DNA of 64,000 nt, from contig JAWMAR010000820.1 of NCBI GenBank assembly GCA_036785375.1, positions 496,001-560,000 of the forward strand, written 5' to 3'. Below the pieces are notes generated by a model. The model had not been told where the DNA came from. It was given only the letters and a program-made list of their open reading frames with translations, and did no database searches. The position numbers and the translations under genes were made by a program. The DNA is from Leucoraja ocellata. Its lineage: Eukaryota. Below, in pieces: positions 2,975 through 60,840 of the stretch. Each line of letters starts with the position of its first letter. Position 1 is the first letter of the stretch.

Positions 2975-3153
2975 CATATCTGTTGCCAGCCCTGAATTGG
3001 TCTGGCCTTTACTTGCTTCCAGTTTTTCTCTCCTCCCCCACCACCTCTATCTTTCAGTCTGAAGAAGGGTTCTGACTCAAAACATCACCTCTTACTTTTC
3101 TCCAGAGATGCTGCCTGGCCGGCTGAGTTACTCCAGCATTTTGTGACTATCTT
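2975..3153 (+). mobile_element. Hammerhead-core (Penelope-like) short repeat, decayed copy
   Basis: CTGAAGA-AGGGT-TCTG-ACTC-AAAA-CA-TC from 3059, followed by the family tail ctccagagatgctgcctg...gctgagttactccagcattttgtg. Confidence 0.75.
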
Positions 3154-5932: not shown

Positions 5933-6734
5933 TATGTTATTATGGGAAAATGCAGGTACATAATTTTTATCAGAGCAATTATTCAATTCTACAAAACACT
6001 TTTTTTACCCATACCCTCTGCTTTCCACTGATGTTTATTTTGAGCCAATGTCTAAGACAACACAGAAACAGGCTGTTTCGCCAATAGAGTCAACTCGAAT
6101 CATCAACAACCATTTCACACCAATGCTATATTAATCCCAGTTATCTTCATCTTAAATTCCACAACTCACCTACACAAGAGGCAATTTGCAATAGCCAATC
6201 AACCTTTGGGATGCAGGAGGAAACTGGAGCCTTCAGAATAAATCCATGTGGAATAGGAAAACATGCAGACTTTTTTCTATTGGGTACTTTAATAGAATGA
6301 TTATATAGAATTGAATAGAATCCACCTCTAATAAAGCAAATCTCATCAATCATTTCGCTATTGTTTGAAGTGCATGGGATATAATCTTCAGACATTTTCA
6401 GTACAATTAAAAACTGAAGTACCACTTCACCTAATAGGTTGGTGCTTATTGTTTTTTTTAATTAAAACTGTGGGTAAAGTTGTAAATATCCAGGAGAATT
6501 CTGTTTAATCACTTTTTTATGTTTTCAGTTACAGAGTCGAACTCTATACTTTAGCTCTTTCAGTCAGACAAAACTTTTTAGGGTAGTGTAATACATTGTT
6601 GTTGAGGTTTCAAAGCACACTATTTATGATGCGCCAGTGAGATTTCAGTTTAGGCTGATCGGCTTTCGTGGTTCGGCTAGCTCCAGAGAAAAACAATGCA
6701 AGACTTATAACGATGCAAAATTGTTTTACTGGTT

Positions 6735-6903
6735 TTGCATATCTTTCATTCATTTGTTCCATATCACCGTCTGTATCTCTCGTCTCCCTCTCCCCTGACT
6801 CTCAGTCGTAAGAAGGGTGTCGACCCCGAAACGTCACTTATCCCTTCTCACCGGAGATGCTGCCTGTCCCGCCGAGTGACTCCAGCGTTTTGTGTACATC
6901 TTC
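6735..6903 (+). mobile_element. Hammerhead-core (Penelope-like) short repeat adjacent to the promoter
   Basis: agt-CGTAAGA-AGGGT-GTCG-ACCCC-GAAA-CG-TC-act at about 6804-6838, plus the family tail. CpGs are preserved. Confidence 0.8.
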
Positions 6904-6924: not shown

Positions 6925-7460
6925 ATTTCGTCGCGAAAAAAAAGTAAAGTGCTCCAGTTTCGCAAGGACCGGAATTGCTCAAGGAGCAATGGGAGCGAAG
7001 CGTCCTTGCTCCGCCCACCTGCGCCGAGCCCGCCTAACGCGGGTCACCATTGAGCAGCGCGCTGTCCATCAACCACCGGCAGCACAGGTATAGTTCAGGT
7101 GAGTGACAGATGAGCCCAGATCGCAACCTGGGCGAGTAGCGCGCGCGTGGCGTCGCTGCGGGGAAGTTTGGGTTTCAGTTCATTTTTTTAATTTGCCTTG
7201 TTATTCATTCTTTTAACGCGAATTGCAAACGCACCCACACACACACATATAGAAAGTAAGTAAAGGTGCAGAGCACCATTTCAAGTCAGTGATGTCGAGC
7301 AGCGGGCTAGCCGTCAGCGTCCCCCACGCTGAAGAAATCGCTGTTTTTGCCCAACTCAAGCCGGTGGCCATGGCCGTCGGCGCTTCCGAGGAGCAGTCGG
7401 TGTTTGAAGACATCAAGCCGCCGGTCAGGATGATGGAGACTCAGCACGAAATGGGCCAGG
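6925..7460 (+). promoter_or_regulatory. CpG-rich promoter and first-exon region of the KLF5-type gene
   Basis: Local CpG enrichment in an AT-rich background. GC box CCGCCC at 7011-7016 overlaps E-box CACCTG at 7016-7021. GCGCGCGC run near 7139. Immediately upstream of the ATG. No obvious TATA box. Confidence 0.7.
7292..7459 (+). CDS. KLF5: KLF5/KLF5-like coding exon 1 (56 aa, MSSSGLAV...HEMGQ)
   Basis: ATG at 7292. Encodes VFAQLKPV, identical to the N-terminal motif of human KLF5. Ends at a phase-0 donor CAG|gtaaga at 7460. Lies in a CpG-rich region. Confidence 0.9.
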
Positions 7461-10400
7461 TAAGACTCGAGCAATCGGCTGATCTCTTGTTGTTCGTCCT
7501 GGATAAAGTGTGTCCAACTTGTGCACACCAGACCAAGACTCGCTTCAAAACAGTCTCATTATGTATGTAGTGTAAAGGGGATCTGTGCGAGTTTGTGTTG
7601 TTTAAGTTTAGTTAAAGGTCAGTTCACTTTTCGTCCGGTGGCGGCAGTGATGCGGTCCAGTGTGTTTGGCATTCATGGTATCGGCGGGTCGGGGTGAGGA
7701 AGGAAGGAAGGGGGTGGGAGACGAGAGAGAGGTGGGGGGCTGATTTACCACCAATGCAAGAAAAACATCCCAGGTTAAGAAGGCTTTCAAATTGCGGGAT
7801 ACGCTCTTTAAACCCGGGACAAGGGAGAAGGCGGTCTTTCATTCAGACCAGCGCTGATACCTGGGCATTGGGGACAGTGACAGCGTCCTGGCTCCATGCG
7901 TGCTGCCAAGTAAAACGCAACGCTGGTTGACTGCAAAAACAAAACACCCGAAGGGCTGTGCAAACTGGTTCGCCGTCCACGGGTTTTATTTTTCGTTTCT
8001 GTATGAAGTTCTCCAATTGTCTCTTCCGTATTTTAGTTGTAAACCTCGTGGCAATTTGTTTTCGAGCTTATTCAATCTGAGCTGTTGGGAGTTTTCTCCC
8101 TTTTTTTATTTGCATGGAATGAGATTTGATACTTAGATTGTGTTCTGTCAGAGGGAGGAAGTAATGGAAAGTAGGTCAGCCAGATATTTATAAACAGATT
8201 GGTGAAGGGGGTTGCTTTTTCTGCCATTTATTATCCATACCATAGGTAATTTCGTACTTTATTAACATTTTATGGTTTAAAGCTATCAGTTTCAAACTGA
8301 TAAGATTCAGTTGGAAACTTCACATAAAGTCTTATCTCGAATACTAGGAAATGATCGAATATGAATTGAACTTTGTTCAATAAAAGAAAAGAAAACAAAG
8401 AAATACGTTTTGAAGAATACGATTTTGGAAATTTTAAGTCTCTGGCTGTCTAGACTTCTTATCTCCCTGCTGCAGGCATTCAGGTGGGAAGCATTAATGA
8501 CTTCAAAAGTTTGTGTCAACTCTTGAAGTCCGTTGAGCATTTCATATAATTAGCACGATTACGGAGGTTTTAGACTATGAAAGCCATTTTATTTTTAATT
8601 AAAAAGTGATCCTTATCCTCCACTCTCATGGCTCGGAATAATAATAAATCTGAAAAGATAGTTGTGCAACAATTTCAGGTTTTGAGACCATTTTTGAAGT
8701 TTCAAATATTGAACTGAATGTTGCTTAAATACACTACTAAATTGATGTTGATGAATGTAATAGAATTCATTGAATGAATCCAATGGATTGTTCTACAATC
8801 TACCTGCTGTCCAATTTCCATTTGCTGAATGTAATATGAATGTTATTATATTGGGGGAAACAGCAAGCAATCAATATTTACAACTGCCTTGTATATCCAG
8901 TTATTAGTGTTCTTGTATTTTACATGTTTTGATGAGTACGTCCATGCTACAATGTTAAACTGCTCCTCCAAATTTTAAGATTGTAGATTTCCCTTACTCA
9001 GGAATGGACAGTCTATCTAAGTGGGATTTTTTTTTAAAGTCACAGAGTGCTCCATTACTTACATTCCTCCACAGTCATAGACCCAATTGTTATGGTCCAT
9101 TATTTGAGGACCACGCATTCATTGACAGGGACCAGATCTATAAACAAAACCACTGTCAAAATTTTCAATCTTTCATTTGATCCAGTGTTTTTTGTGAAAT
9201 ATTATATGGAAGAACATCAATTTAAACAAGAAGGCTTAAAAAAAAGTATTTTAAGATATTGTTTTGAGAATTTTTTTTTTTGAATTGCATTGCCTTGTAC
9301 CAGATTTACTAATAATAAGGATACATATTTGTTTTACTTTATTGTAGTATCAAAGGGATAAAATAATATTCAAGAGGATTTGTATAGAATGAATGGTTTG
9401 TCATGTTTCATTAAAGGTGAGAGCTATTGAACATGAGTGGTAGCATTTTTTAATTGTGTATCTTTATCTGATAACTGGATCATATGAAATAATATCCTGG
9501 ACACAATCATACTTTGAAAAATAAAAGATTCTTTTAGCACAGTCAAACTTTTAACGAAATAACAGTATTTTTGTATTTACCACTTTTTGTATATACTACT
9601 TTTAATTTTATATGTTTATATCTGTGTGCACATGCACCTGTTAAATGTGTCATGTATACACATTTATCTTGTGCATAAACACTTCTGTCAATTAATGATA
9701 ATAAAGAAGTCACCTTGAAGATATTCATAATAGCAAACCTTTTTGTTTGAATTAAGCAAATTATAAGGTAAAAAGCTGGAAGATAAATGGGAGTGGCGCA
9801 TTTAATGATATGTTATTTAGTATTTGTCTGGTCAAGTGTCATATTCATCTGATGTTAATCAGACCATAATTATAAAAATACAGTGAATAATTGCTTAAGA
9901 GTATGCTTCAGTTAATTTAAAGTTTTATTTAAATGAGCATATTTCTTTGTGGATAATATTTAAACTGCTGAAATACAAAATCTGTCAATTTCCAATAAAA
10001 ATCCTTCATTTACAGTTTCACCAACAAGCCTTGTATTAAAAGTTTGTGCTATTAAAAATACAATTTAGTTATCGATTTAATTTATTGTTGAAAATGAAGA
10101 GCTTTTTATCTTTTGCACTCCAGAAAAGTATTGAGCAATAAATGTTTCAACTGAATATTCAACGGAAATAGAACTACGAAACTAATTCTAAAATTAAACA
10201 TAACATTAATGTGTTCTTATCAATGTTAATGTGGATGACTTTCGATTTGAGTTGTTCTGTATTATCAACACTTGATGGAGCAGTTGCCTTTTGTGCAGAC
10301 TGATTAGAATGCCCTTAGGCATTGAGGATAGGACATATTTTTAAATTATGTCCTGGAATATCTTCATCAATAAAAACGCAACCTTTCAATATAAAATGCA

Positions 10401-13400
10401 ATATTCATTTTGAAACCCCGTCCACTAATCCTTTTGATTGATTGTTTATAAGTTTGTGGACACCAGATTCAGAAGAGAAAATACTGGTATCCTCCGATGC
10501 CCGTATTTCTAGTAGTAGGAAAAATAATGAGCGGTCAAATCCAAATTGATTTGAGATATCAAAACACAGGTCTATTTCCATTCCCTTTTATCTTATTGTT
10601 TCATGAAATATTAAAAAATATATAGAATGTCATCAAAGTAAATGCTTACAGTAATATTCTGCAGTATTAATATTTTTACTATTTTACACTTAATTTTTAG
10701 GTCTTAAATTAAATTAAAGTTACATTTCCTTATGCAACTGCAAATAATAAAAATGTCCACACGTGCATAAGTTTGCTTTTATGTTCTAAATGCCTGAAAT
10801 AAATAGATAGTCATCACTTTATGTCAACAAAAAAGTTATTTTATTTTGTGAATAAAATAATCGCTAATATTTTTGAACTTCCCCCTCCCCACTGCCACCA
10901 CCGCCAGATATAGATGACAATAATTGAGTCGTTCTCTGTTGGATTTCTATTGGGCATTCTTTTCCATTCCCTTTCAATTAGATCCAACCAATATTTATAT
11001 AGTTTCAATTTCAAAAGATAAGTATTTGATGAATCTTTTATGCTAGTTAATAAGTGGTAAATTGGGTATAAGCTGACGATAATGCAAATGTTTAGATTTG
11101 GGCTTATTTAGCCCATGTTGATATCCAACAAATATTTATAATGTATTAAAAGAAATTATTCATTTGCAATCATAGGCCATTTTGTAACCATGTGAAATTC
11201 CAGGGTTTTTTTTCTTGTACGCTGTACCATCAGTTAATGCTGCTAATTATTTTCTTTCTACTGCATCTAATCTTAGACAAAATATTGAGCATTCAGATGG
11301 CTTAACTGTATAAAATGCCGGCAACTAGAAAGAGACGTGATGCCACATCATTCAAAGTTAATTATATTTTATTAGCAAGGTTTGAGGGGGAAAATGTTTG
11401 GTACACGTGATATTTATTTTTTGTTTTCGTTTAACTACTTCCATTGTCGGCATAAAATATAAACTGGTTTTGCTGGCAACTAGTGGTTATTTTATTCAAA
11501 AGATAACCTAATTTACATTGAATAAACCGTTTGATGTCGTATGATGCCCGAGTTCACAAATAACTGCTTTGCATCTGGACTTATTATTGTAATAGATCAT
11601 AAATTTGCTGGTCTGAATTGCAATTTAATTCATGTTGAATGTGCCAAACTTTTGCTGTATGTCACAAAATCTCCCTGTAATTTACCCAAATGTAGTATTT
11701 TGAAAGGCACTGAATGCCAGTGAATGCAGTCCATGTTCAAACTGATTATATGATAGGACTCATTGATAATGGCTTCCCTGTCGCAGTGTACTGAGAGACC
11801 TCCCTACAATGTAATTATTTTTTTACCATTAAATTGCTTTCTCTCCTGTTGTAACTAGATTGTGCCAGATGATTCACGTACATTGCTCGCCTTTTTTTGA
11901 ATAAGACAACATACTGAGTGCAAATAATTTGCTCAAACAGTGGCTGTTAGTACCATGTTTCTTGATTGATTGTAAAGTATAATTTCTAGGTATTTCTATC
12001 AATATTAAAATATACATATAACAAAATGATTTTAATGTTTTATCACATATTACATTTTTGAATGTTTATGCATTTGGTAGAAAAAATGTCCTAATGTAAA
12101 CAATTGCAGGAAAAAGTCTGGTTACAATCTTTACTCAGTGAAAATGACAACAACGTTGGAATTTAAATGCACATGTAGCTTAATGCTGAAATCAAGCGCT
12201 GCTGTCATAATTCTAACATGTCCTTACAGGCTGTGCTATTTGCAGCCTTTTTAATCACAATCCAGCCGTAAATCATGAACTAACATGATTTTAAGCTATT
12301 TATGCACACTGTTTGCTGAGCAAACTGTTTAGCTCTTTATTTCATATTTATTTTCATTTTCTTACATCAATGTTTGAAAATATTACGATTTCTTTAAAAT
12401 AGGAACTAACTGCATTATTCAAGATCTTTCATTTTCTGCTTCCAACATATTTCGGGTTCTATCTAGCATTCTGGTTGACATGTGAAAGATTACTTTAAAA
12501 TTATTTTCTGGTTTCCTATTGGAATTAAACCAACAATTAGAACAATTGGTTTGCTCCATTACCTTAATGGCATCAGAGTTGTTGGGGGCAGGGACAGCCC
12601 TGAACTGAGTGAGGCTTGGCAGTAGAAAGGAGAAGTTTGTGCCAGAGCTCACTTTGTTTTCACACAGGAATGTTTTTCTAGATCAACCAGAAGTGCTGTC
12701 ACTTTATCTTGGCCCTAAACTCTGGAGCATTATTTTTTACTTGTCACTTCAGAAACTGCCCAGTTATATTGTTTTTGTTTAGTACTTGGTTTTCCAGTAA
12801 TATAAATCAATGTTTCTGGAATGAATTACTGGGTTAATAGATTTTGATTTGGCTTTGGGTTGAACCAGATAGGCTGTAGCAATTTCTTCTCTTTCTCCCT
12901 ATACCTGTCTTCCAGCCATTGTAAATATACTTTGAACATGAGAAGAGAATGTGAGAAGTGTTCCTTTGAAACTCCACCATCAGATCTTCAAAAATATTTT
13001 CTCGTGGACATTGAAAAGTCATGAAGTCTTGAGAAAATGTTTAAACTGAAGTTCACTATTGTAGCCAGTCGTAGGAAGGTATTGTCAATTTAGCATCCGT
13101 GTTCCAATAATCACAGAGGTAACTGATTAGAGGGGAATATGACTTGGTACTTCATCTCTCAAGCTCAAAGAGAGACTTTACTTCAATGCCTTTATTATTA
13201 CATCATAATTACAATTAGTTTGAATTACTTGAAGGGTTGAAATGACAGCCAGGGTTTCTTTAATTTTATGTTAATCATTTGCGGTCAATTATCCTTGCTC
13301 AATAATTTTTCAATAGATAAACTGGAATATACATTAGACATTAGTCTAATGCACTGCCCATCTGGAGAGGTCACCTGAATTTACATATAGTTTGATTATT

Positions 13401-14030
13401 GAATTTGTGGTTTCTTGAATTTTGAATTCTAATGGTTAAAAATTAATCCATTAATCCCTGGGATTACGGCAAACAATCTTCATTAAAAATCAATTTATTC
13501 CATGTGATATCAGGAAATGGTGAACAGTGGATAAAGCAGAAGCTCTAGAAAAGGAATCATGCTGATATAATGCTGTAAACTGCACCTCTATCCAAGCTGC
13601 TGAAGTATATTTACAGTGCTGCTGCCAATGCGCAAAATTGTCCAGTTATACCCTGCCCAGGACCTAGGAGTCATACTTTCCCCAAGCAACTTCCACATGT
13701 AAATCCATCAAAATATATAATCCTCTTCCACTTGTCACACCTCTTCTATAGCCTTCAATACACATCACAGCCTTTGTTCATCTTAGGGAAAGGATGTCAG
13801 AAGATCACACTTGACACATAACTAATTTTGAGGCTTTTGAGATGTGACTACTTACAAAGGCAACTAAATTCTTTGGAAAAACACCACCAGCACTGTTAAG
13901 ATCCTTAAAATTCCCTCGAAGCAATAAGTAAATCCCTTCCCTTGGGTGATGGCCTTGGTTACACTCGGTTGGCTTCAATGGACTGGCTATTTCGTTCCCA
14001 CATGAAATACATACTCTCTACTGCAAGAGA

Positions 14031-14122
14031 AGGCACAAAGTGCTGGAGTAACTCAGTGGGTCAGGCAGCATCCGTGGATAACATGGATAGAAGACATTTT
14101 GGGTCTTAACCTTTCTTCAGAC
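14031..14122 (-). mobile_element. Hammerhead-core short repeat (minus)
   Basis: Reverse complement reads gtCTGAAGA-AAGGT-TAAG-ACCC-AAAA-TG-TC plus the tail gatgctgcctgacccactgagttactccagcac. Confidence 0.75.
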
Positions 14123-14294
14123 ATGGAATGAATTGATTTCCAACTTCTTGTGCAAAGTTAGCCGTCTTGACTTCTCTGCTGCCCTTAGTCACTCCAATCT
14201 CATCGTCTCTGAATGCAAAACCCATTCACTCGGCAACAATCCCATCATTACTGTTAAACATGATGACAATAGAGGTGAAGTTGAAGCCTATATA

Positions 14295-14370
14295 ACTAAG
14301 AAGATGGGTCCCAACCCGAAACATCACCTATCCATGTTCTCCATGCAACAACCCCCTGACTGTTGAGACT
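14295..14370 (+). mobile_element. Hammerhead-core short repeat (plus, decayed)
   Basis: aagaaga-TGGGT-CCCA-ACCC-GAAA-CA-TC-acctatccatgttctcc. Confidence 0.6.
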
Positions 14371-14714
14371 TCTGCCCCATGAATGCTCCAAACATGGCAG
14401 ATGTTTTTGAGTACTTCGAGGCATCTGAATGCTGAGAGACTCTTTTTTTTTTAAATCATTTGTTACAAGCCCATTACATTTTCATGGTAGAGCTAACTTT
14501 CCATCTGTTAAATTTGTATCTCGGAATGCTACTATCCCATGTACGAGATCTTATTTGCAGTTCTCTGGAATTACTATACATTTTGAATGAAGCACACTGA
14601 AGATTTCAGTTCATTTCTACGTGCACCAAGTTTTTTTCCACTAGCTTCTAAACCAGGATACACATTTTATTATGTAAAATAGGTACAGTTTGGGATGAAC
14701 TGAGATATTTGTCG

Positions 14715-15420
14715 TAGAAACATACAGCATAGAACCAGGCCCTTTAGCCGACCAGGTCTGCACCAACACCAACTAGCCATTAACTCTAATCCCAACATTC
14801 ATCCCAGTTTTGTTTTTAACACATTCTCTTCAACTCCACCAGATTCTTGCACTCACAACCTAAGGGGCAATTTACAGCAGGCATTTAAACTAACAACCTG
14901 CATGTCTTTGGAATGTGGGTGGAAAGCAGAGCAACTGGAAGAACCCCAGACAATCACAGGACAAATGTGCAAACTCCACACAGACAGACAGTTGGTTAGA
15001 CTGCATTTGAAATATTGTTTGCAGTTGCAGGAAGGATGTGCTGGCTTTCAAACGGGTGCTGAAGAAGTTTACCAGAATCAGAATTAGGGAGGTTGGACAA
15101 ACTTGCACTGTTTTCTTTCGAATGTCGGAAATTGAGGAGAAACCTGACATAAATGCATATAATTATGAGAAGCATAGACCGGGTAGGTGGTTGGAACTTT
15201 TTTCCCCCAGGGTGGCAATGTCTAAGACTAGAGGGCATAGCCTTAAGATTAGAGAGGGAAACTATAAAGGAAAAATGCTTGCCATTTTTATTTAAAGAGT
15301 GGTGGCTGCCAAGAGTGGTAGGGGAAGCAGATACAATAGGCCATTTAAGAAACTTTTGGATAAGCATATGGATATGGAGGGATGTGAATCACTTGCCGGC
15401 AGAGGAGATTTGTTTTTGGC
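14715..15420. mobile_element. HE1-like SINE (minus, about 14715-14990) followed by CR1 3' fragment (plus, about 15000-15420)
   Basis: The SINE body (gtctttggaatgtgggtggaaa...tgcaaactccacacagacag) is followed by CR1 RT C-terminal peptide in ORFs 15038-15295 (RVLKKFTR, SKTRGHSLK). Confidence 0.7.
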
Positions 15421-16370
15421 TGCAGCCAGCCAGGGATCAAGTATTCTTCCCAGGTAAGACTTTGGGGTCATGGATTAATTGCATCCTCATCATTTCTGTG
15501 TGTTCTGAGGTAGCTGATGAGATTAATTTGGGACCAGAAAACTCTACCACTGGTGGGGCAATTTAATTTAAAGGGTGATAAAGTGGTTAGTTAAGGAGAT
15601 GGTGTGCTCCATCTGACATTTGTACCAGGCCTTCACGTGTTCCTGACAATGGGACTTGAAGTTTTCCGTGCCCTCCTGAATTCTATTGCTCTTCTTCGAG
15701 AAGTCTTGGGCCAGACTTTCCTACATGTTGATGGATATGTTAGCTTTTTATTAACAGACTTTGAAAACATCCTTGAATCATTTCTTCTGTTCTTCAATCA
15801 ATCTCTTGCAATGACCTAATAAGGAATATAATAACTCTTTTGGGAATGTATTGCCAGACATGCAGATGACGTGGCCTTCCCATAATTACTGAATTATTGT
15901 AAGTAACAGTTTGATATTGTGGTTGTTGGCCTGGGAGAGGATGCTGACATAGGTTTGCTTGTCCATTTGAACATTTTTGCTGAGACGTGTTGCTGATATA
16001 TTTCAACACTGAGATTCTTGTTGTATATGGTACATGTTTCAGAAACAAGCACAAAGACAAAGATAACTGCTATCTGGTAGACCATGTTCTTTGTGTTGGG
16101 TTTGAGGTCTGGATCTTCAGATGTTTTTCCTTAGATAGCCAGAGACTATCCTGGCATGGTGATTTCTCTATAGCTGTCTGTTCCCACAGATGGGTGGGAT
16201 ACATATGGGAAGTGGTCCACATTTTCTTGGTGTAATCTTGTCAGAGGAGGTTGCTGTTCTTGTTGTTCAGCAGCAGTTTGGGAGAAGAACTTTGTTATGT
16301 GGATGCTTAATGTGCGGTCAGTGATCAAATCAGTAGCAAGTTGGAATTGGACCTGTGTATATGTGAAGGT

Positions 16371-16536
16371 AGACATAAAATTCTGGAGAAACTCAGGCAG
16401 CATCTTTGAGAGAAGGAATAGGCAACGTTTCGGACTGATGTCGCGGGGGGGGGGAAAGAAGTAGACAGAGACAGTAGGACGTGGGAGAACTGGGAAGGGG
16501 GAGGGGAAGGAGGGAGAACGCAAGGGCTATCTAAAT
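16371..16536 (-). mobile_element. Penelope-like terminal fragment with deleted hammerhead stem II
   Basis: Same family tail (gatgctgcctgagtttctccag). cgaaacgttg is retained but CTGAAGA and stem II are deleted. A pyrimidine-rich upstream segment is present on the minus strand. Confidence 0.65.
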
Positions 16537-16769
16537 ATGTGAGCTTTGTGTACCTCCTGCAATGCAGTGATTTGAAGTTGGACTGATCTTAGTCTTGGAG
16601 TGAAGGCACCTTGGATTGATCAGTCCCATTTGTCCTAGGGATTAGCATCACTCCAACAGGATTTTAATTGTGAGTGGAGCAGTATAACAGCAAATATAAT
16701 AAGGAAAAGTGTTGGCATGGCGATGCAGTCTTGCTTGACCCCAGCCTGCATGGAGATTTAGTATTTTCT

Positions 16770-16867
16770 TCTGAAGAAGGGTCTCGTCCCGAAATGTCAA
16801 TCATTCTTTCTCTCCAGAGATGCTGCCTGGTCCGCTGAGTTACTCCAGCTTTTTATGTCTATCTTTG
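16770..16867 (+). mobile_element. Hammerhead-core short retroelement with 9-bp TSD (best-preserved core)
   Basis: CTGAAGA(16771-77)-A-GGG-TCTCGT-CCC-GAAA(16791-94)-TG-TC. Flanked by GTATTTTCT at 16761-16769 and 16868-16876. Confidence 0.85.
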
Positions 16868-17765
16868 GTATTTTCTCGATGCGTTGGTCATAGCTTGCAT
16901 GCCATCATGTAGCGCATGAAGTCAAAGGATGATGACTGATTTTTGAGGGCAGCAAATGTGAGTAGGATTCTCTGGAAGAAATTTTTCAACAAACTCTGAA
17001 ATTTCCCAAATATTCCTTTTCAGGAGTGTTCTTGACACTGTCCCAAATCAAACTGTCTACTACAACCCAGACTGACAGGAAGTCCAAAAGTAAAACTTTA
17101 GCTTCAGGTGCAAACAATATCCCTGTGGAAATGTTAACACTTCATGTAGAAGAACTTGAAATTAAAGTTTATAGGCTCTTTCTGTGGGACAAGGAGGGCA
17201 TGACAGGGAATCTCAAAGGTTGTAGTCATTGCCATGACCATGATCTTCACTGATCAACAGATCTAGACAAAAATGAAGGGAGCAGCATCAACCACTGCAT
17301 GATCTTTATTAACCCAGATCAAAGCAATTGGAAATGAGGGACCACACTTTGTGGCAGGGACCAAATTTAATAGTATTGTCATTCCAAAAATTATTGGAGA
17401 AAATTTCCAGTCATTGATGTGCTTCGACTGGAATATGTAAGTGATGCATAAAAGTTTCAGGTACTGGAAGAAATTCACAGTCATTCTGTGGACCTGATTG
17501 TATAGATGAGAATGAAACCATGTGAGTGAGGTTCCAACTGGCTGCATGACAGTGGAATTGTTTGGGAGGAGGTTGGTTTGGTCAACTGTGACAAAGGTGC
17601 AACCAGTTTAAGAAAAAATAATTTACCCTTTAAATAGTGTGTGACGTTAAGTGGTAACTTTTGTACTGGTACTGTGCTAAGTGGAGAAGTTTGCTTTGGA
17701 AATATTCAGACAAAGTAATTAGAGAATGATGTTTTGACAACATTAAAAGGCAAATATATATAATA

Positions 17766-18820
17766 CTGGACCAAGTGGGACCGCTGGGTCCCGTCTCCTC
17801 AACACGCGGTTGCGGGGGGGAGGGTCCGGCCTGTGGCATCACACACACACACTAACCCCCCCCCCCCCCCCCACGCACACATACACTAACCACCTCCATT
17901 GATATTATATTAATATTATTCATTCACTCCTTTACTCCATCCCCTATCCACTCGCGTATAGCCCCCAACTCGCAGGCATGACTAGAAAGGGAGGGGGGGT
18001 AGAGAGCGAGAGGGGCACAGGGAGGGACACAGAGGCACAGAGGGGGGGGGGTGGGACAGAGAGGGAGGGGTAGGGGAGGGGGAGAGAGAGTAGGGGAGAG
18101 GCCGGGGGAGGGGGGAAGAGGAAGAGGAGGGGGGAAGAGAGACCCGACCTGCTCTTTCTTCAAAGCCCGGGGGGTAGAGATCCTGGGGGCAAGAGAGATC
18201 CTGGGGGAGAGAGAGAATGCGACCGAGGAGCCGAGAAAAAGCCCTGAGAGAAAGCGATGCCCGAGCGTCTTTTTAAGGGGGTGGAGGAGGAAGAGGTGGG
18301 GGCTGACATCACTCGCAGCGCAAGGAAGACAATTGCAGGGCAAGTAAGGTGGCAGCAAGCAGAGAGGGGGGGGAGAGGAGGAGGAGGGGAGAGAGGGACC
18401 CAACCCGAGACGGACCTGAGAGATCTAGTACAGGGCCCGACTTGCTCATTCTGTACTCGCAGCGCAGTTTTCAGCTCTGATCATTGGTCTTCAGTCGACG
18501 AGCCGATTGTTGAATAACGGGGGGAGGAGGGAGGGGTGGGGGGTTGACGTCACTCGCAGCGCGAGCAGATGCAGGCAGGCAGATCCATTGTGACGCCATC
18601 GGGGAATAAGGAGTTATATTTTTCCAAGTTTCTTCAGATTTGTGAACATTTTGATTAATAACTCAAGAAATGGCGATTTTTGATTTCACGGGATAAATCT
18701 CTACCGGAATATGTAAAAATGCTACCATTAGCACGTCGTTTCTTCGAGTAGATGTGATCGCACACAAACAAATAAATACACACACACATCCGAGATCAGA
18801 GTTTTATAGTTATATAAGGA
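17766..18820 (-). mobile_element. Non-autonomous Helitron (second subfamily)
   Basis: Minus strand reads A|TCCTTATATAACTATAAAACTCTGATCT ... GGGACCCAGCGGTCCC-ACTTGGT-CCAG|T. Termini match the 1754-2907 copy; the purine-rich interior differs. Confidence 0.75.
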
Positions 18821-19586
18821 TAAGGTATTGATAAATGTACAGCACTACAAAACAATCGGGCTGAAATCCAACAGAAATTACTGTTTTGGAGCAAATAAAA
18901 TAGGAGGACATTATAGCATTTAAAAATATGAAGGATTGTGATTGATAGAATGAATAGGAAAAGAAGGTTAAATTAGGTTGTGCATAACTAGTGTACAAAC
19001 TATTTCATCTTTTAAAGAAAATTTGTAAAAAATAAAGTTGGATGAAATGATGGGCAATGGCTAGATTCATTTGCATTGTTTAATCAAAAGCAATCAATGG
19101 TACAATGATACAATTTGCTGAAATGTCTCCCCCTTTGCTGTAAACTTATAATCATGTAAGTTATGATTTACATGCAAGCCATAAATCATGGAAACTATTG
19201 TAGTTTCAAACCAAGATTTGGAAAAATGGTATTGCCTTTTATGAGCCAGATCATCGACCTACATGATGAGTGCCTCAGCTCATTGGTGTTTGTCTTCAAC
19301 TTCTGGTCTGATGCATTAAGTACAACAAGGAAAGTACAACAAGGAGGAAGGGGTCAGTCAATGTTAAATTGAAGTATGAAAAGTCTTCACTTGACCAACT
19401 GCTATGTCTCTTAGTTGGAGAGGTCTGTCTGTAGGCTTGTATCTAGCGTGGGGTACTGAGAGGTCAATGAGAGATACAAAGGAATGATCCTCAGCATTTA
19501 TGTCTTTTCTCGGTGAACAAAGTATTTTTTTTTTTTTTTAAACACGGTATCTCAACATTTAAATATCCCTTTTCTTTTGTCTATAG

Positions 19587-19682
19587 GCCAATATATATCT
19601 GAGCGAAGATGCCATTAAGCCAACAGGCTTCCTGAAATCACAGTTATTGCAACTGCTGCAAACAACTACATCTCCAAGTCAA
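19587..19682 (+). CDS. KLF5: Probable additional or cassette coding exon of the KLF5-type gene (ANIYLSEDAIKPTGFLKSQLLQLLQTTTSPSQ)
   Basis: Polypyrimidine tract and acceptor (cccttttcttttgtctatag|), donor CAA|gtaagt. 96 nt, phase 0-0 matching the flanking exons, no stop codon. No homology recognised. Confidence 0.6.
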
Positions 19683-19982
19683 GTAAGTTTAAGCCTTTTG
19701 TTTTATGTTATTAGATACACATAGAAAACGCTCACATTGCAAATATCTGACAGTTTATGAAATTGATAAGACAGAGTTCCACCCACTTTGACCTAATGGT
19801 CTTGCATTAATTTATTCAGTGTTCAGCTCAAAGACAACATAATATGAGAAAAAGGAAATGAATCAGAAGTGATTACAAATGATAAGATAAAACCAAAGAC
19901 ACTTAATTTGTGCCATTATAATTCTTCCAGCAATCACCAATTGAGCTTTTGGAATAATTTAATAAAATTATCCTTTCAAAGG

Positions 19983-20279
19983 GGGCAGCGCAGTGGTGCA
20001 GCAATAGTTGCTGCCTTACAATGCCAAAGACCCGTGTTCGATCCTGATCTCTGGTGCTGTGCTGTGTGTACGGAATTTGTACGTTCTTCCTGTGGCTGCG
20101 TGGGTTTCTCCGGAAGTCCAATTTCCTCCCACAATCCAAAGAATTAAGCTAATTGGCTTGGCAAAAATGTAAATTATCCCGTGTGTAGGATAGTGCTAGT
20201 GTACAGGAATTGCTGGTAGGCACAGACTCGGTGGGCTGAAGGGCCTGTTTCCGCACTGTATCTCTAAACCAAACTAAAA
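19983..20279 (+). mobile_element. HE1-like tRNA-derived SINE
   Basis: A-box and B-box-like head (gcagtggtgcagc, gtgttcgatcct), conserved body, CR1-like tail gggcctgtttccgcactgtatctctaaac. Confidence 0.85.
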
Positions 20280-21149
20280 TTTGTAATTGAACGAATGTCA
20301 ACTTCAGAATTGAATAATTTGAATCATTGGATCATTGTAGTTTACTTACAGTAGGAGAAAAGGAAAAAGCCTTTTAAATAATTTGCGATGATAAATGTAT
20401 TTGTCAATTGTAATAAGAATTTGTTGACTGTGTGTATATCTCTGCAACTCTTGTGTTATTTTCTATCACGTGCCAACGAGAGCCATGAACAGACATTTTG
20501 GCTGTTTTGCTGTGTCACTATGTACTTGATGGTTTTTGTTTTGTGTTAAGTATAGTCATTGATTGTTGACTGTGGAAAACACAACTGCCTGTTGATTGTT
20601 CTTCAACTGGAGGGCAGCATCAGACTGTTTATGAACCCTTAGTTATTCTTTTCGTAGTGAGTGGATTAAAGTTGATTTAAATATTCTCCCTGTCTTCAGT
20701 TTCTCAGTAAATCCACCAGTATCAAATGAACTTTTCCAAGGATCAGATCTAACAGTTTGAATCTTGTGGGAACTATTGAGTTCAATAAATATGAAATTCA
20801 TTTTGTGGCATTGCTACAACAGTGAATAAGTTCTCATTCAATGATGCCCGGGCAGTTCTGTTTTGTTAAATGCAGTACAATATTTATGTACTTTATCTTT
20901 TTTGTGTGTAGGATCTCTGTGTTCAATGAATGGATCAAAATTAATAACATTTTTTCGCTAAATAATTGAATTCATAATAAATTCATCAGATATGTATCAT
21001 CTGATCAACTGGTCAATGATAAGTAGTGATGCTCCAGTCTCTCATGCACAGGGTTGGAATCTGGCCTATAATACATGATATAAAGCAGACTTCGACCATT
21101 CTTGACAACATAACACATCCTAAATGAATCAAGCAGACCTATGGATATC

Positions 21150-21400
21150 AAATCTCGAATCTGAAGGTGCAGGATTGAAGCCCTCCTTCGATTCATTCTG
21201 GTGAATTAAAATAAAAGTATACACCTGTAGAAGTTCAAGAGAGTATATGTCAACATACCAAATCTCCTCAATCTTGTAAGAAATCGTTCTGTCTTGCTGG
21301 CCATCACTTCTCCCATCTGCTTGGGATGGTACAATTTAATGCAGAAATTGCTGGGGATGACACAACATTCTTCTGCAGGATTCCATGTTGTGTTCTCCAC
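21150..21400 (-). mobile_element. Rex1/Babar LINE remnant
   Basis: ORF 21206-21400 contains FLTRLRRFGM...LLNFYRC, homologous to the Rex1 copy at 45858. Confidence 0.55.
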
Positions 21401-21672
21401 CTACCCGATTAATATAAAATTAGTGATTCTTTGTGAAATTAATTAGCATTACTCTTTTCTCATTGCAAACCCCCCTTAAAAGCATTAACATGCTGAATGA
21501 GGTTTAACTGAACTTTTAATATTTTAAGTTGTGTTCACTGCTGAATAACTTTACAAACACCGGCCAAAAATATAAATGTGTATTAACAAATTATAATACA
21601 AACGTTCTTTGATTTTTAAAGTAATTATGTTGCTTATGATATAAGATGAAGATGGTATCCCTAAACAAAATG

Positions 21673-21972
21673 GGGCGGCAAGGTGGTGCAGCCGGAGATT
21701 TGCTGCCTTATAGCACAAGAGACCAGAGGTCGATCCTGGTTACGGGTGCTGTCTGTACAGAATTTGTACGTTCTCCCCGTGACCTGATTGGGTTTTCTCT
21801 GGGAAGCTCCAGTTTCCTCACACGCTCCCAAGAAGTACAGGTTTGTAGGCTAATTGGCTTGGCATAAAGGTAAATTGTCCGTAGTATGTGTAGGATGGTG
21901 TTGGTGTGCGGGGATTGCTGGTCGGTGCTGACCCGGTGGGCCAAAGGGCCTGTTTTCGCCCTGCAAACTAAA
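21673..21972 (+). mobile_element. HE1-like SINE
   Basis: Collinear with the 19983 copy. Confidence 0.85.
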
Positions 21973-23601
21973 GTTTGTGTTGCTTCTGCCATTGTGGCTA
22001 TCCACACAACATTGTTTGTGAGCGTAGATATTTTGCAGAGGCAACACCTATCATCCAGGTTGGACTATAAGGGGAGGGTAAAACTGCCATCAAGTTTGTT
22101 ACTCGAGGTTAGTAATAAATTATCGCATGTAAAAGCTGAAAAGTAATTTAAAACTGTCCTCCCTCCACCACCCAATATTAGACTACAGAACTCAAATGAA
22201 TAATGATGCAACATATGATATTAATAATGATGGTAATAATAATAACTGATCATTTGTACTGGACTTCTTGAGCAATGTAATGATGCAGCAAAAACTGGAT
22301 TGTCAGCATGAACCACAGAGAACATATTACTTGAGGAGTAACTATTCCGTTCCCTGGTTTAAAGGAAGAAAAACCTATCAATTGTAAATGAGCATTAAAA
22401 TAAATTGTCACAGCTTGTTGGAAAACATATAACTTGCTCAATTGCTTTTATTCAATAGCGTAATCTCATTATTTATAGAGGTATTTGTGGTATGACGCTG
22501 TAACTGTGGGCTCCTGGTACGACCACCAGATGACCTTAAACTCCCTTCCATTGAGCTGTTAGTTAAGCCTGGTAAAAACTGAATGGGATCCAAGACATTT
22601 AATAGTGAAATCCTTGAATTACTCCCAATGCACAGAAGCTATTAAAATAAAGCAGTCAAACGAAGACTGTCTATACTTTTGAAATATGAGGATAGAATTA
22701 AAATATGATTAGAAGATTATCTAATATTTCCCTTGCAGAAAGCACAATTCTGAATGAGTCAAGCAATACATAGTCAGTTAGGACCACAGCAGCAGACTTT
22801 GCCTTGATTTGATATATGCATTTAGTTAAATATACTGCCTTTTATTGATGAAAATGCATTTGAATCCATTAAACAATTGTATCTTCATGAAGCAGCATAC
22901 TAAACAACAGTGTCTCTTGCACTATTTTATTTGCACTGTCAGACAAAACTGAGAAACTAGAACACAACGTTCAATGTAGTTAGGTACAGTGAGAATTAAA
23001 CATATTATTCAATGATCGCTTTCCTCCTCAAAAGTGATAAATATGCTGCAAATTAAATGCATGGGCAATTTCCATCATTCCAATGCTTCTGGTGGCATGA
23101 TGGCAAGCTGTATTTTTTTTTTTATCAGTCTGAGACTGGGCATACCACAGTACCTTCAACTAGTTAAGCGAAAAAGTCACCTTTAAACATCTGGAAGAGG
23201 AATTTTCAACAAAAATAAAGAACAGCATTGAGCGATTACTTTAGTGATTGATATATTTTAATCATGAGGAAAGTTCCTATTCGTGCCTCCCTATTGAGGT
23301 AGATATGTTGGGAAATGTATTCTGCACACTTACAAGTAATGACTAAGTTCTCTTGCTGAAAACCCTCAGTGGTACATACTGTGTTAAAATGCTAATAAAA
23401 GGGAATAATTAATGATTTTTATTTTGGGATGGACTTTGAAATCTTTGGATTTTCAGCATTAAAAGCTGTTTAATGTTAAATTGAAATTCCCAAATAAAAA
23501 CATTTTGGGCTATGTCTCTACAGAATTAGGAAGTTTGGAACAGTCAGCATCCTTGCTTGTTTGTCAGCAAAAAACAAATAACTATTGATTTTGTTTTTAA
23601 G

Positions 23602-24472
23602 GTAAAATCGGAAATGGACAAGTATCTGACACCGCTAATTCCACCACCTATGACAATTCTGGACCAGAAGAAGTACCGAAGAGAGAGTGCCTCAGTAATA
23701 GATGAGTTCTTTGAGGAGCAGATTACATCACCGTACAGCTTGAATATCAACCTAATTCTGCCTGAAATCACACACCTGAGAACAGGCCTTTACAGATCTT
23801 CAAAACCAGTTCTCCCACAAGTAAAGACAGAACAGGCCACTAACTTCACCCAGTCATGCACATCCAGTACGACAAATGCCCTGCCTGAATTCACCAGTGT
23901 GTTCAATGTGCCACAGTCAGTTCCTGTGAATAATATCTTCATCAAGCAAGAAGCCCCGTCCCCAGATCTACCACTCCCTGTCAGTTCACATCAACCTCAG
24001 ATGTACCAAATGCCAATGAATACAGATGTTGTCAACATGCCTTTGAGCTCTAACCAGTCACTTGGCAACACTACAGTTATTCATAGTCGTAACAGTGTTA
24101 CCATGTCAACGGGCATGGGTAGACCAAACAACCCGTGTTCTCAGTCTTCAATTAAACATTTTCAACCCGTTGTAACCACACCAAATGGCTATGTTGTGCC
24201 AGCCCATTATTATCGGCAACAGACTTCATACTTGCCACCCTCACCACCAAACTCCCAACCTGGCAGCCCAGAAAACCAGCCTGATCTTATCAATACACTC
24301 TCGCCACCACCATCATATGCTGCATCAGTGGCATCAAAGATCCATCATTCACAGATTCATAATCTTCCGACTACTTTGCAGTCCTGCCAATCTAACTTCC
24401 AGCAAGCAAAATACAGTCGACGTAACAACCCTGAGTTGGAGAAGAGACGCATTCATCACTGTGATTTTCCAG
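23602..24472 (+). CDS. KLF5: KLF5/KLF5-like large exon: transactivation region to start of zinc finger 1
   Basis: Acceptor ttttaag|GTA. Translation VKSEMDKYLTP...KKYRRESASVIDEFF...LPEITHLRTGLY...VNNIFIKQE...PPSPP...PPPSYAA...NPELEKRRIHHCDFPG is collinear with human KLF5 exon 2. Donor G|gtgctt at 24473. Confidence 0.97.
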
Positions 24473-26477
24473 GTGCTTATCTCTATAAAAGCTTCCTTTG
24501 CTATAATGTATAGGAGAATGCATATTGTGCCTTTAAATTTGTTGCCATTTCATTTGTTTTCTCTACTTCCTCTTACATTAAAGACATTAATTAAAGCTGA
24601 AATACATTCTTCTGTATGTTGCCCATGTGGCCTTGCTTCAGGAATAAACACATTAAGGTTTGAAAGCTTTTTTTGAGAACACGAATGGACCATTATCTCC
24701 TTTTGAATCTACTTTGCCACTTAGCAAGATGGTGGCTGACAACCTGACACTTTTACCCATATCCCGAACAACATTTCTCATAGAAAATATTTCCAAACTT
24801 TACTCTTGACTGCAATATCTAGACTCTGCCACTTGGTTGTAGGTTCCTCAAATAGCAGACGTAGCCATTCTCCAGCTATCTTAGCAGTTTGTACTCGTGG
24901 TTTGAAGACTTGAATCACCCTGTAATCTAAATCCCAAGAAACACAATTCTAGTTTTTCCAATTTCTTGTCATAATTTAAAGTTTTGAAATTCAGATATCA
25001 TTCTAAAAGCTATTTAGCACTATCTCCAAGATTGGTGTATCTTTCCTAAGTTGTGATGTCCAAAAACTGCAGATAGGACTCCAGAGCTTTAAATAACTCT
25101 AACATAATGTCGCATTTTTGAAAATAGTGTTCTAGTTGCCATTCTATGTATGTTTGTAATTCTCTGCTCCTGTTTTAACCATGCTCAACAACAGATTTGG
25201 TCATTCAATTCAACCATGGTCCAATAAATCATGAATAAATATAACAACTAGCTGAGGCCCCAATACAGGTCCTTGTAAGACACTTTCTGCCAATTAGACA
25301 ATATGCTCTTGTACTCTTTTCACCTGCCTCTCAACTTCCTTTAGGTTATTAACTTTTAATTTTATGACTGCAACTTTGTTGGCTTTCTTACCATAAACTT
25401 TTAAAAGTTGCTTTCATAAAAATAAACCCCCCAAACTGTTTTTGTCATCTTTCAAAGATGTTGGCATATTCCTGTTTGACATTTTAAAAAAAATCATTGT
25501 TACTAGTTTAAGGAGGTGACCCTCTTATCGCCCTCTCTTCCCTAATATTATAAATCATTAATTTAATTTCAATCAGAGTTGCCAGGACCAGTGCTAGTTT
25601 CTGCATTGTTGTTCTTGGTTTATATCAACCTTAACTTTTTGGCTACAGATGGCTTCTTTTGGCAGGTAGAGCTCTTGCCCTTTGTCAATTATAAAGTATT
25701 TTAAACCTACTTGTTTCTTTACACTCAAGTTAGCCAAAAGTTTTTTTTATTTGTACTGGAATCCTAATATGTGCCCTGCTCTGCCAAATTGAAAATCTAT
25801 TCTAATTTTGGACCTATTTAATTATCAACGCAACACCAAAATGCAATCCAAATCATTAAACATTAACTCTTAAAATACTATTAAGCTGATAACTCTTTTT
25901 CAAGCACCTAAAATCCCATCTTAAGGTATTCTTGTAAAAATCACCCTCTATTAACTACAATATCACATTTATTTTCTACCTTTGTTTGGTTACTGCTCAC
26001 TCCTCTGCTCTCATTGACTTCCTCTTGTCAATTCTCTCAAATCTATCCATCACTGTTTTCCATCAGATTAGTTCTGTCCCACTCTCAGCTGGTCAACTTT
26101 TATGTAGAACGGAATACGATGCACACTAAACCAATTGACAGTTGTACCTTTCAGGAGAGGATCATAGTTAGGAGTATGTTATGATGAGTTATTTGCATTT
26201 TTTCAGCAATCTGTGTGCATATAAATTTAATTTAGTCTTTAGGTTGAAGAAATGTAACTGTTTCCTTGACGTGCACAGAGTTTACATTGTCAATGACTTC
26301 AATCATGGCAAGTTTCATGACAATAGTTGTAACTTTGCATGTAACCAGAGCAGCAGTCTGCTTGTCAGTTTACCAGTAGCCAGCTGGTATAACCAGCCAT
26401 TCTCCTTTGAAACAATTTAACAACCCATTCTGAAATAATGAGTTAATCCAGTTGTTATTCATAAATCTTGGACACAC

Positions 26478-27360
26478 ATGAGCACGAAAATAGGAGCAGA
26501 GGTAGGCCAATCAGTCCCTAAAACATGCCCCACCATTCAATGTTATCATGACTGGTCTACCCCTTCCTTCAAATCTTCCCCTATGCTACATCCCAATAAA
26601 CCTCCATATCGAGACATTAAAAAAAAAATGTATCTACCTCTACTTCAAATATTTACAATGAGCTCCACAACGCTCTGGAGCAAAGAATTCGAGAGATTCA
26701 CTACCCTCTATGAGAAGAGATTTCTACACAGCTCTGTTTCAAATAACTGCCCCCTTATCTTTAAACTGTTTTATCATTTGAGATGATGAAATTATCTCAT
26801 TATCTCAACAACTATCCTGCCATGCCTCCTTGGGCTCTTTTGTGTTTCAAAAAGATTATCCTTTATTCTTCCTATAATAAAGGCACAGCCCTTTTGGCCT
26901 CTCTCCTTTGAATAATCTTTTTTTCCCTGGAATTAGTTTGGAATCTATTGACTGCTTAGAAATACAGCTATATCCTTTCTTTGGTATGGGGACCAAAGTA
27001 ATCCTCAATTTCAACTTTCCAAGTGTGACTTTACCAACACTCTATATAGATGTAATAAAATTAGCCTATTTTTAAACAAACGTCTACAATAAGGGCAATT
27101 TGCTATGGTAACCACCTTGTTGCATCTACCTGATAATATTTTGTAATTCATGCACAGGAACGTCCAAATCATTTACACCCCTTTTCCTCTTGGATAATAA
27201 TCTGCTTTTAACTCCTCTTGCTGAACTTCATGATCTTGCACTTTCCACATTAAACTCCATTTGCCAAATTTTGAACCACTCATACAATATATCCACATCC
27301 CATTGTTGATTCACAATATCCTGATCACAATTTTCCCTTCCTTATTTTTGGTGAACAGTT
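26478..27360 (-). mobile_element. Old CR1-type LINE 3' fragment
   Basis: aaataggagcagaggtaggcca tail, ctccacaacgctctggagcaaagaattc, and cactttccacattaaactccatttgcca (WQMEFNV on the minus strand). Confidence 0.65.
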
Positions 27361-28116
27361 AGATTGCTATGTTATTTTCCCTTAGAAACAAGTATTGATA
27401 CGTTTGTAATAATGTTATTTGTCATAAAAAGTGAATTTTGTCAGTCACTAATTTGCTTCAATGTTTTGAAAGTCAGATTTCTCACAAGTGAAGCAGTATA
27501 GCGCAAAATGTATATCAATCTGGGGTGAATCTTTAGATGGGGTTTATCTACGTGTCTGTCGTGGCTTTGGTGGAAGGCCTATAGAAAATCCAGCAAAATG
27601 GCGTCAACATTAGTTTTGAGATTTCCACAGTTCCGATACTGAAGTCACCAGCAGACCTATGCTAAATTTCTTCCAGAGATTCTGTATTTTTGGGCAATAT
27701 TCACAAATTTATAACGCTAGAAAGTTTATCGTACTCAAATGGTTTGTTAAGAGCAGATAAGCAGCCTGTTGTCAGATTTATTTTTGCCTGGAGTTTCTCA
27801 GTAATACATAAGAGCCAATCTGATCTGTTCTTAAATCCAGATATGCATCGCAATTTGTAAACAATTGTAAAAAGCTCAAATGTACACACATAAAGAGGCA
27901 CTTTTTAATTCAAACAAGAAGTACTGATCCCACAGGTTTTTAATGATCTGGAAATTAATACCTTAGGTCCTTGAAGTGACTGTTTTAAGCAGTTCAAAAA
28001 CTCTCCGCTCCATTTTTGAGGTTACTCATCAAACTAAAATGAATACATTTAGGACTTTTTTCAGCATCCAGGATGGGAAATCAGAAATGTTCTTACATTT
28101 TAAATTATTTTTGCAG

Positions 28117-28176
28117 GTTGTGCTAAAGTTTACACCAAGAGTTCTCATTTGAAAGCCCATCAAAGAACCCACACAG
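28117..28176 (+). CDS. KLF5: KLF5/KLF5-like 60-nt exon: zinc finger 1 ([19 protein letters not shown])
   Basis: Acceptor tttttgcag|, donor ACAG|gtattc. Phase 1-1. Canonical KLF ZF1 sequence. Confidence 0.97.
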
Positions 28177-32269: not shown

Positions 32270-32543
32270 GTTAGTTTAGTTTAGCGATACAGTGCGGAAA
32301 CAGGACCTTTGTCCCCGCACATTAACACTATCCTACACACACTAGGGACAATTTTACATTTATACCAAGCCAATTAACCTACAAACCTGTATGAGTGCGG
32401 GAAGAAACTGAAGATCTTGGAGAAAATTCACGGGGAGAATGTACAAACTCCATGCAGACAGAACCCATAGTCAGGATCAAACCATGGTCACTGGTGCTGT
32501 AAGCACTGTAAGGCAGCAACTCTACCGCTGCACCACCGTGCCA
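32270..32543 (-). mobile_element. HE1-like SINE inserted in an older CR1 fragment (about 32220-32970)
   Basis: Reverse complement of the 19983 and 21673 SINEs with a (ctaaa)n tail. Flanks carry decayed CR1 phrases. Confidence 0.8.
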
Positions 32544-36316: not shown

Positions 36317-36401
36317 ATGATCAGCCATGATCATATTGAATGGCGGTGCAGGCGCGAAGGGCCGAATGGCCTACTGCTGCACCTATTTTCTATGTTTCTA
36401 T
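36317..36401 (+). mobile_element. CR1/HER1-like LINE extreme 3' end
   Basis: gatcagccatgatcatattgaatggcggtgcaggc...gggccgaatggcctact...tatgtttcta, the same tail as the 3360 copy. Confidence 0.85.
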
Positions 36402-60786: not shown

Positions 60787-60796
60787 TATCTATCTG

Positions 60797-60840
<44 letters not shown>

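Follow-up and report, generated by a model that had tools for sequence, protein, structure and literature searches.

The 64-kb window analysed here, a stretch of 64,000 nucleotides of Leucoraja ocellata DNA, contains 10 copies or fragments of one repeat in and around a batoid klf5-like gene, and these are very probably the dead pseudo-LTR 3′ ends of a batoid EN+ Penelope-like element (PLE), most likely of the Neptune clade and present as several subfamilies. With them the known association of PLE pseudo-LTRs (pLTRs) with minimal hammerhead ribozymes (min-HHRs) is extended to a batoid family. No published description of this family was found in the literature searched, and repeat databases probably list it. 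Each copy is referred to below by an approximate position, and the coordinates of all features are collected in Table 1.

Seven copies and two tails had been listed in a preliminary description made from the sequence alone, and all nine are present. With three or fewer mismatches, its consensus pattern has five matches in the window as compared with a mean of 0.02 in 100 shuffles, and BLASTN with the 16771 region alone as query finds nine further places, seven of them with E values of 1.1e-7 or lower and the remaining two with 0.002 (51759) and 0.042 (14300). What had been missed is a tenth piece, an inverted arm on the minus strand at 49916-49972. A profile made from nine copies recovers the same copies by construction and reports nothing below E 9 in the reversed window; two weak profile matches (5482-5555 and 35627-35658, E about 0.05) were inspected and rejected as copies. 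The nine aligned copies diverge from the majority sequence by 8-23%, the value for the 6807 copy being inflated by a misplaced gap, and the 16771 copy departs from it at 14 of 96 positions (14.6%), a divergence like that of the others. Neither the 27 rows of Tandem Repeats Finder output for the window nor its 10 copies include a tandem array of the repeat unit, and exact-pattern scans of prokaryotic genome contigs with two patterns gave no match for either. Ten pieces per 64 kb suggest a very abundant repeat, and such abundance would be useful both for covariation analysis of min-HHRs and for mapping the ends of PLE insertions. The repeat is also relevant to annotation, since it is translated in Leucoraja gene models: four of the 16 database matches of the translated repeat are models of Leucoraja erinacea (P0125, P0134, P0136 and P0137; figla, a protease locus, RASL10B and TLR7). 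In three of these four it lies at the N-terminus, and they are likely annotation artefacts or exonised repeats.

Table 1. Repeat copies, their component parts and target-site duplications, and the host gene. Positions are those of the 64-kb window.
Feature	Position	Strand	Remarks
3059 copy	3027..3153	+	pyrimidine-rich upstream part, CAG-T before core; G12 lost; 5′ edge approximate; no clear target-site duplication on search
6807 copy	6733..6902	+	upstream element sequence of 74 nt or more that matches P0123; scrambled CUGA box
klf5-like host gene	7292..53931	+	coding exons ~7292-7460, 19587-19685, 23602-24477, 28110-28178, 53752-53931
14120 copy	14026..14122	-	starts 2 nt before C3; G12 lost
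14298 fragment	14296..14344	+	C3/U4 mutated; without the common 3′ end
16430 copy, independent, 168 bp	16367..16534	-	~100 nt of pyrimidine-rich upstream element sequence
Duplication of the 16430 copy	16359-16366 and 16535-16542		exact, 8 bp
Left target-site duplication, 16771 copy	16757..16769	+	13 bp, 1 mismatch
16771 copy, 5′-truncated PLE pseudo-LTR end, ~96 bp	16770..16865	+	starts 1 nt before hammerhead C3
Min-HHR motif of the 16771 copy	16771..16798	+	CUGAAGA, extra A, stem II of 3 bp plus U-U mismatch, GAAA, AUGU; C17 = 16798
Right target-site duplication, 16771 copy	16864..16876	+	first 2 nt overlap the element end
Duplication around the whole 49916-50110 insertion	49906-49915 and 50111-50120		exact, 10 bp
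Inverted, 5′-truncated arm without tail	49916..49972	-	joined head-to-head with the direct arm
Direct arm with hammerhead motif (49975 copy)	49973..50069	+	G8 and G12 both mutated to A
Optional 3′ tail, 41 bp	50070..50110	+	aligned in P0138
51759 3′-terminal fragment, 30 bp	51759..51788	+	15-bp duplication, 1 mismatch: 51744-51758 and 51789-51803
59478 3′ fragment	59479..59556	+	starts near GAAA; duplication looked for, none found

The majority sequence matches the published min-HHR consensus of PLEs (Fig. S3 of Cervera and de la Peña 2014, PMC4209133) at all of its defined positions: CUGANGA, the extra H, G10.1-C11.1, GAAA, a palindromic pair, U and H, with a minimal helix III. The motif is therefore, as had been proposed, a minimal type I hammerhead of the kind that occurs in PLE repeats, with a stem II of 4 bp, a loop of 4 nt and a helix I of 2-3 bp that fall at the short end of the range for PLE min-HHRs. 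The extra residue lying between position 9 and position 10.1 is A (T in the 14298 copy), and the G10.1-C11.1 pair is G-C in five of six copies. The core (CUGANGA...GAAA...UH) is intact in the majority sequence of six copies and in the 16771 copy, and broken in the other five single copies. The sequence of the 16771 copy is CTGAAGA-A-GGGT-CTCG-TCCC-GAAA-TG-TC, after which come about 70 nt of repeat body, and the statement that it keeps all core nucleotides is correct (11 of 11, with C16798 at the H17 position). Loss of G12 had been ascribed to most other copies and is seen in three of the seven that cover it (3059, 14120 and 49975); elsewhere the CUGA boxes are damaged (6807 and 14298), or the 5′ core and stem II are gone by deletion (16430). 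Helix III had been given as A-CG-U, and this palindromic segment is indeed that of the majority and of two of six copies (6807 and 49975), but it is CpG-decayed in four of six, including the 16771 copy, where it is the non-palindromic A-UG-U. Helix I has 2 bp in the majority, as it also has in the Culex and D. virilis rows of PMC4209133; 83% of its cells are paired, and its only two-sided change is host sequence at 16771.

A strict hammerhead descriptor has a single match in the window, at 16771, and one match each in 10 of 100 random sequences of window length; as it also matches random sequences, identification of the hammerhead rests on the family and not on the 16771 copy. Rfam at gathering thresholds gave no hammerhead match in the whole window, and at E ≤ 10 in the interval 16500-17100 it gave three unrelated matches and no hammerhead.

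Nine of the 10 copies have a common 3′ end, and the 5′ ends are spread from -101 to +62 relative to C3, with three copies reaching at least 32-101 nt upstream of the core. No copy carries a poly(A) or microsatellite 3′ tail. The family had been said to generate target-site duplications, and it does: four of the nine insertions searched (16771, 16430, 49906-50120 and 51759) are flanked by flush duplications of 8-15 bp, all AT-rich, and a convincing duplication is missing in the other five. The flush duplications score 8, 10, 10 and 12; among random window pairs, for which flush ends were not required, scores of at least 10 occurred in 6/400 and 4/400 and scores of at least 8 in 38/400 and 42/400. 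The position of the 16430 duplication assigns to the element about 100 nt of pyrimidine-rich sequence upstream. The insertion at 49906-50120 comprises an inverted truncated arm, a direct arm, a one-sided 41-bp tail and a 10-bp duplication, and the same layout, with an optional tail of 30-40 bp and duplications of 8-10 bp, has been described for PLEs (Fig. 2 of PMC8557442; PMC3846280). Its tail is family sequence, because database record P0138 aligns across it (49957-50103, tail included, E 8e-12), and its inverted junction is found in two further database peptides, P0128 and P0131, by reading of the peptides and, for P0128, also by alignment. On the minus and plus strands of 14026-14344 the 14120 copy and the 14298 fragment lie head-to-head about 175 bp apart, both with the variant CTATCCATGTT after the core, and are possibly one inverted insertion with a captured spacer; a shared duplication that would make them a single insertion was sought, and its best score of 6 is unconvincing.

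Connection of the repeat to PLE coding sequence comes through database record P0123, which contains the repeat, an upstream extension of the 6807 type, and a stretch common to P0138, P0139 and P0142 that lies about 270 nt before the repeat and its hammerhead. Records of this type read TGA as W, and the residues allowed in shifted frames were computed by degenerate back-translation and set against the alignment of endonucleases that Craig et al. 2021 (PMC8557442) give in their Fig. S2. Read in the second shifted frame, both P0123 and P0138 fit the C-terminal motif of the Neptune-1_Ac endonuclease at 10 of 10 positions, P0139 at 8/10 and P0142 at 5/10, the best of 600 shuffles being 8/10. The C-terminal motif and His block together fit these first two records at 15 and 16 of 16 positions, with shuffles reaching at most 13; the GIY and YIG motifs themselves were not seen. 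A Poseidon-type C-terminal motif fits at 5/7, no better than shuffles. The motifs were chosen after the allowed residues had been seen, and the shuffle test is therefore optimistic; the endonuclease link nonetheless appears strong, though the motif choice was not blind, and it rests on two database translations. It is direct only for the 6807-type upstream sequence and the tail, the upstream sequences of the 3059 and 16430 copies being different. As judged from these translations, the C-terminal motif of the endonuclease alone favours Neptune over Poseidon. The order in P0138 (repeat, tail, endonuclease-like stretch) reads as a partial tandem, an arrangement that is absent from the window.

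Larger parts of a PLE were sought in several ways. Pfam identified no GIY-YIG domain in the 128 window orfs scanned (of 143 orfs of at least 75 aa), and neither a PLE reverse transcriptase nor a full-length element was seen near any copy, the RVT_1 matches and the LINE- and LTR-type reverse transcriptase fragments lying apart from the copies. Among 878 candidate proteins neither a longer relative of P0123 nor a reverse transcriptase was found; Pfam found only host or LINE domains, and no PLE domain, in 20 repeat-bearing database peptides; and the ESM Atlas gave no usable match to residues 55-125 of P0123. No consistent orf start emerges within the repeat: the frame with the ATG closes in the tail, and only three of five copies keep the other frame open. 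At 16523-16534 on the minus strand, which is the 5′ end of the 16430 copy plus one base of its duplication, the very short translation F-R-stop-P resembles the end of the endonuclease frame deduced from P0123, and this copy may start at the last codons of the orf in a subfamily with a shorter 3′ UTR.

A variety of relationships to known systems is observed. Thousands of min-HHRs per genome are reported in fish, coelacanth and Xenopus (PMC4209133), mostly as single dispersed motifs ascribed to truncated PLEs but in part as opposite-strand pairs spaced by 100-700 bp, and the window resembles these in both respects; no chondrichthyan is included in the 56 rows of Fig. S3 of that paper, and shark or skate names are absent from the parts of it that were searched. 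Among PLEs of the Neptune clade (Neptune-1_Ac, Neptune1_Nv and Penelope1_XT; Fig. S2 of PMC8557442) the likeness lies in the fit of the linked sequence to the C-terminal motif E..IFRL...HP.GLN and the His block, in a 3′ endonuclease that precedes a hammerhead-bearing pLTR, and in inverted copies with an optional tail, whereas the family is known here without a reverse transcriptase, a linker zinc finger or a full-length element. A similar C-terminal motif occurs in the endonucleases of Naiad and in some from Chlamys, but these are N-terminal and mostly without hammerheads (PMC8557442). In Poseidon_Ac of Anolis (Frangieh et al. 2024, PMC11167929) the hammerhead precedes, by about 70-110 nt, two alternative 3′ ends with a tail between them, and the targets are AT-rich, both as found here; this element differs in its endonuclease motif and in an orf that starts at stem II (PMC11167929), where the batoid repeats show no consistent orf start. 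Non-LTR retrozymes (PMC7229834; bioRxiv 10.64898/2026.07.22.740005) are likewise non-coding, have type I hammerheads and a kinship with PLE pLTRs, and are described from one chondrichthyan, but they are tandem with a hammerhead in each unit, whereas the present copies occur singly or inverted, are truncated to varying extents and have the minimal motif; head-to-tail units each with a type I hammerhead, by which retrozymes are recognised, are absent from the window. Penelope elements have been reported in the whale shark (PMC8455134).

We propose that in the source element an orf with a GIY-YIG endonuclease at its end would be followed by a 3′ UTR, roughly 100-200 nt long and finishing in a pyrimidine tract, and then by the min-HHR, a body of about 70 nt and an optional tail of about 40 nt. 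By extension from the anole PLE (PMC11167929), the element protein would nick AT-rich DNA and reverse transcription would begin internally at either of two sites, the common 3′ end and the end of the tail. Reverse transcription would usually stop early and sometimes add an inverted arm, which would give pieces of 30-200 bp between duplications of 8-15 bp; pieces and duplications of these sizes are present in the window itself. By analogy with what is reported for other PLEs (PMC4209133, PMC11167929), the hammerhead would work in the source element only, its cleavage depending either on dimers in tandem transcripts or on help from protein. The solitary inserted copies, the 16771 copy included, would decay without selection, with which the counts of changes are consistent.

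In six copies, changes affect 8/66 cells of the core, 3-4/48 of stem II and 78/536 of the body, with p = 0.71 for the core and 0.13-0.28 for stem II; with six copies such a neutrality test has little power, and the stem trends towards conservation. Loop II, with 10/24 cells changed, is more variable than the body (p = 0.002), and CpG sites are changed in 13/46 cells; the loop II changes are compatible with variation tolerated among source elements, with CpG decay, or with a combination of the two. The preliminary description of a stem II that is kept while its loop varies agrees with these counts, but the compensatory changes expected of a structured RNA are found at none of the four stem II pairs in these (only six) copies, and the observed level of stem II pairing is reached by 74/500 shuffles. 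The genomic copies look to be neutrally decaying, with no compensation in stem II and a core conserved no better than the body. In an RNAalifold consensus of five copies the partner of the core is the downstream pyrimidine tract, and the covariation term is unfavourable (+1.16); single-strand folds have z-scores from -1.48 to +0.86 with the hammerhead formed in none.

It had been implied that the 16771 copy would cleave the host pre-mRNA after C16798, and the rival reading that follows from this is that it is a working ribozyme, retained for cutting the klf5-like pre-mRNA within intron 1. The reading is favoured by a full set of 11 core nucleotides, found in no other copy, by an orientation sense to the gene, and by three stem II pairs with probabilities of about 0.96. 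The helix I pairs of this copy, however, have probabilities of 0.0001-0.0002, and its free cofold at -15.0 kcal/mol beats the -7.2 kcal/mol of helix II plus an intermolecular helix III. Because there is no second intact core in the window to serve as a partner, because AUGU is not self-complementary, and because the 2-bp helix I has a 5′ strand made mostly of host target-site sequence, it is unlikely to cut. Folding z-scores of +0.84 and +0.26, a divergence of 14.6% like that of the other copies, and the descriptor matches in 10/100 random sequences also count against a retained function, as do the reports that single min-HHRs show no cleavage (PMC4209133) and that the anole PLE hammerhead cleaves only with protein and is dispensable for insertion in vitro (PMC11167929). 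We regard a working ribozyme at 16771 as highly improbable, and conclude that the window copies are predicted to be inert as ribozymes.

The 5′ ends bear on the nature of the short copies. Three of the 10 (16771, 49975 and 14120) start at -1 to -3 from C3, and the chance of such a -3..-1 bin is roughly 0.0007, or 0.04 over all bins, if truncation is assumed to be uniform. Before the core, the three copies whose upstream sequence is intact have an 82-87% pyrimidine tract ending in CAG-T, and TCAGTCT at -5..+1 fits the initiator consensus YYANWYY. Three of 13 informative database peptides (P0133, P0138 and P0140) lose homology near the same place, at codon resolution; the remaining 10 either are ambiguous, run on further or begin within the core, and P0125 falls short of the region. 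In D. virilis Penelope an intron ends at helix I (PMC4209133), and the CAG-T before the core fits a splice acceptor of that kind as well as an initiator.

Two other origins for the family were weighed against the decayed PLE ends proposed above. The common 3′ end, 5′ truncation and duplications are also features of LINEs and SINEs, and the repeat could on these grounds represent a LINE (CR1/L2) or tRNA-derived SINE 3′ end whose likeness to a hammerhead arose by chance, as the lack of an Rfam hammerhead and of covariation support would allow. We give this next to no credence: the copies are without a poly(A) or microsatellite 3′ tail, both the inverted arm with its optional tail and the connection to a C-terminus of GIY-YIG type are features of PLEs, and the majority equals the PLE min-HHR consensus at every defined position. 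Closer to the preliminary description, which saw a self-contained non-autonomous mini-element built around the ribozyme, is the reading in which the form of about 100 bp that starts just before the hammerhead is a non-autonomous family of its own, either SINE-like or made of retrozyme monomers, whose short RNA transcripts PLE proteins would mobilise in trans. The starts at -1 to -3, the initiator-like TCAGTCT and the three peptides speak for it, as does the occurrence of non-autonomous pLTR-derived retrozymes in one chondrichthyan (bioRxiv 10.64898/2026.07.22.740005). Copies of the same sequence nonetheless extend upstream into the PLE 3′ UTR or start well inside the element, the peptide evidence has only codon resolution, non-LTR retrozymes are tandem repeats with type I hammerheads and the window has no tandem array, and ARAGORN finds no tRNA gene in the window, which is a weak test for SINE heads. 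We consider such a family unlikely, and the self-contained mini-element is not upheld, given the upstream extensions, the endonuclease-like link and the PLE layout of inverted arm plus tail.

Within the reading of the copies as PLE pseudo-LTR ends, it is possible, though doubtful, that the -3..-1 cluster is real and marks an RNA end, either an initiator-like start at TCAGT or an intron end at CAG, with run-off producing unit-length mini-elements. Internal priming about 100-135 nt downstream would lead the enzyme to run off the 5′ end of its own transcript and insert the hammerhead-bearing leader. If so, PLE 'strong-stop' products would have accumulated in batoid genomes as a very large fossil record, from which the start of the transcript and the two priming sites could be read, and RNA start or splicing would set how much of helix I the ribozyme can form. 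Such run-off would rescue part of the mini-element idea, although the numbers are small; clustering that held genome-wide would bear on how PLE RNA is started, processed and primed.

The host was described as an elasmobranch, which is correct, and the klf5-like exon places it most likely among the batoids: the orf at 23605-24477 is a KLF5-family exon whose best named match is 'Kruppel-like factor 5 like' of Narcine bancroftii (88%), with sharks at 81-83% and elasmobranch KLF5 proper at about 46-51%. The 16771 copy was said to be sense to the KLF5 pre-mRNA; it is sense, and in intron 1, but the gene is the paralogue klf5-like and not KLF5 proper. The 6807 copy is about 390 bp upstream of the klf5-like start codon; it lies (6733-6902) at the edge of a CpG-rich region and has kept its CpGs, unlike the other copies, as would suit an unmethylated promoter neighbourhood. 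An (ATAG)n microsatellite (2898-2973) adjoins the 3059 copy on its upstream side; microsatellite targeting is mentioned for some PLE clades (PMC8557442).

Several other repeats are present in the window. Two LINE-type reverse transcriptase remnants are on the minus strand, one at 45861-47190 in two frames (RVT_1 and ALKBH8_N matches) with a related fragment at 57986-58243, and one at 3513-4375 with related pieces near 27193-27329, 32591-32807 and 54458-54940. Intron 4 of the klf5-like gene contains an RNase H-like domain of LTR-retrotransposon type reverse transcriptase (30257-30961, minus strand). Another dispersed repeat of about 300 bp, possibly a SINE, is found at 19978-20277, 21668-21963 and 32271-32542, the copies being 66-73% alike. 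At 60786-63000 a (CTAT)n tract precedes a degenerate G-rich tandem region that in part matches 1739-1851 in opposite orientation.
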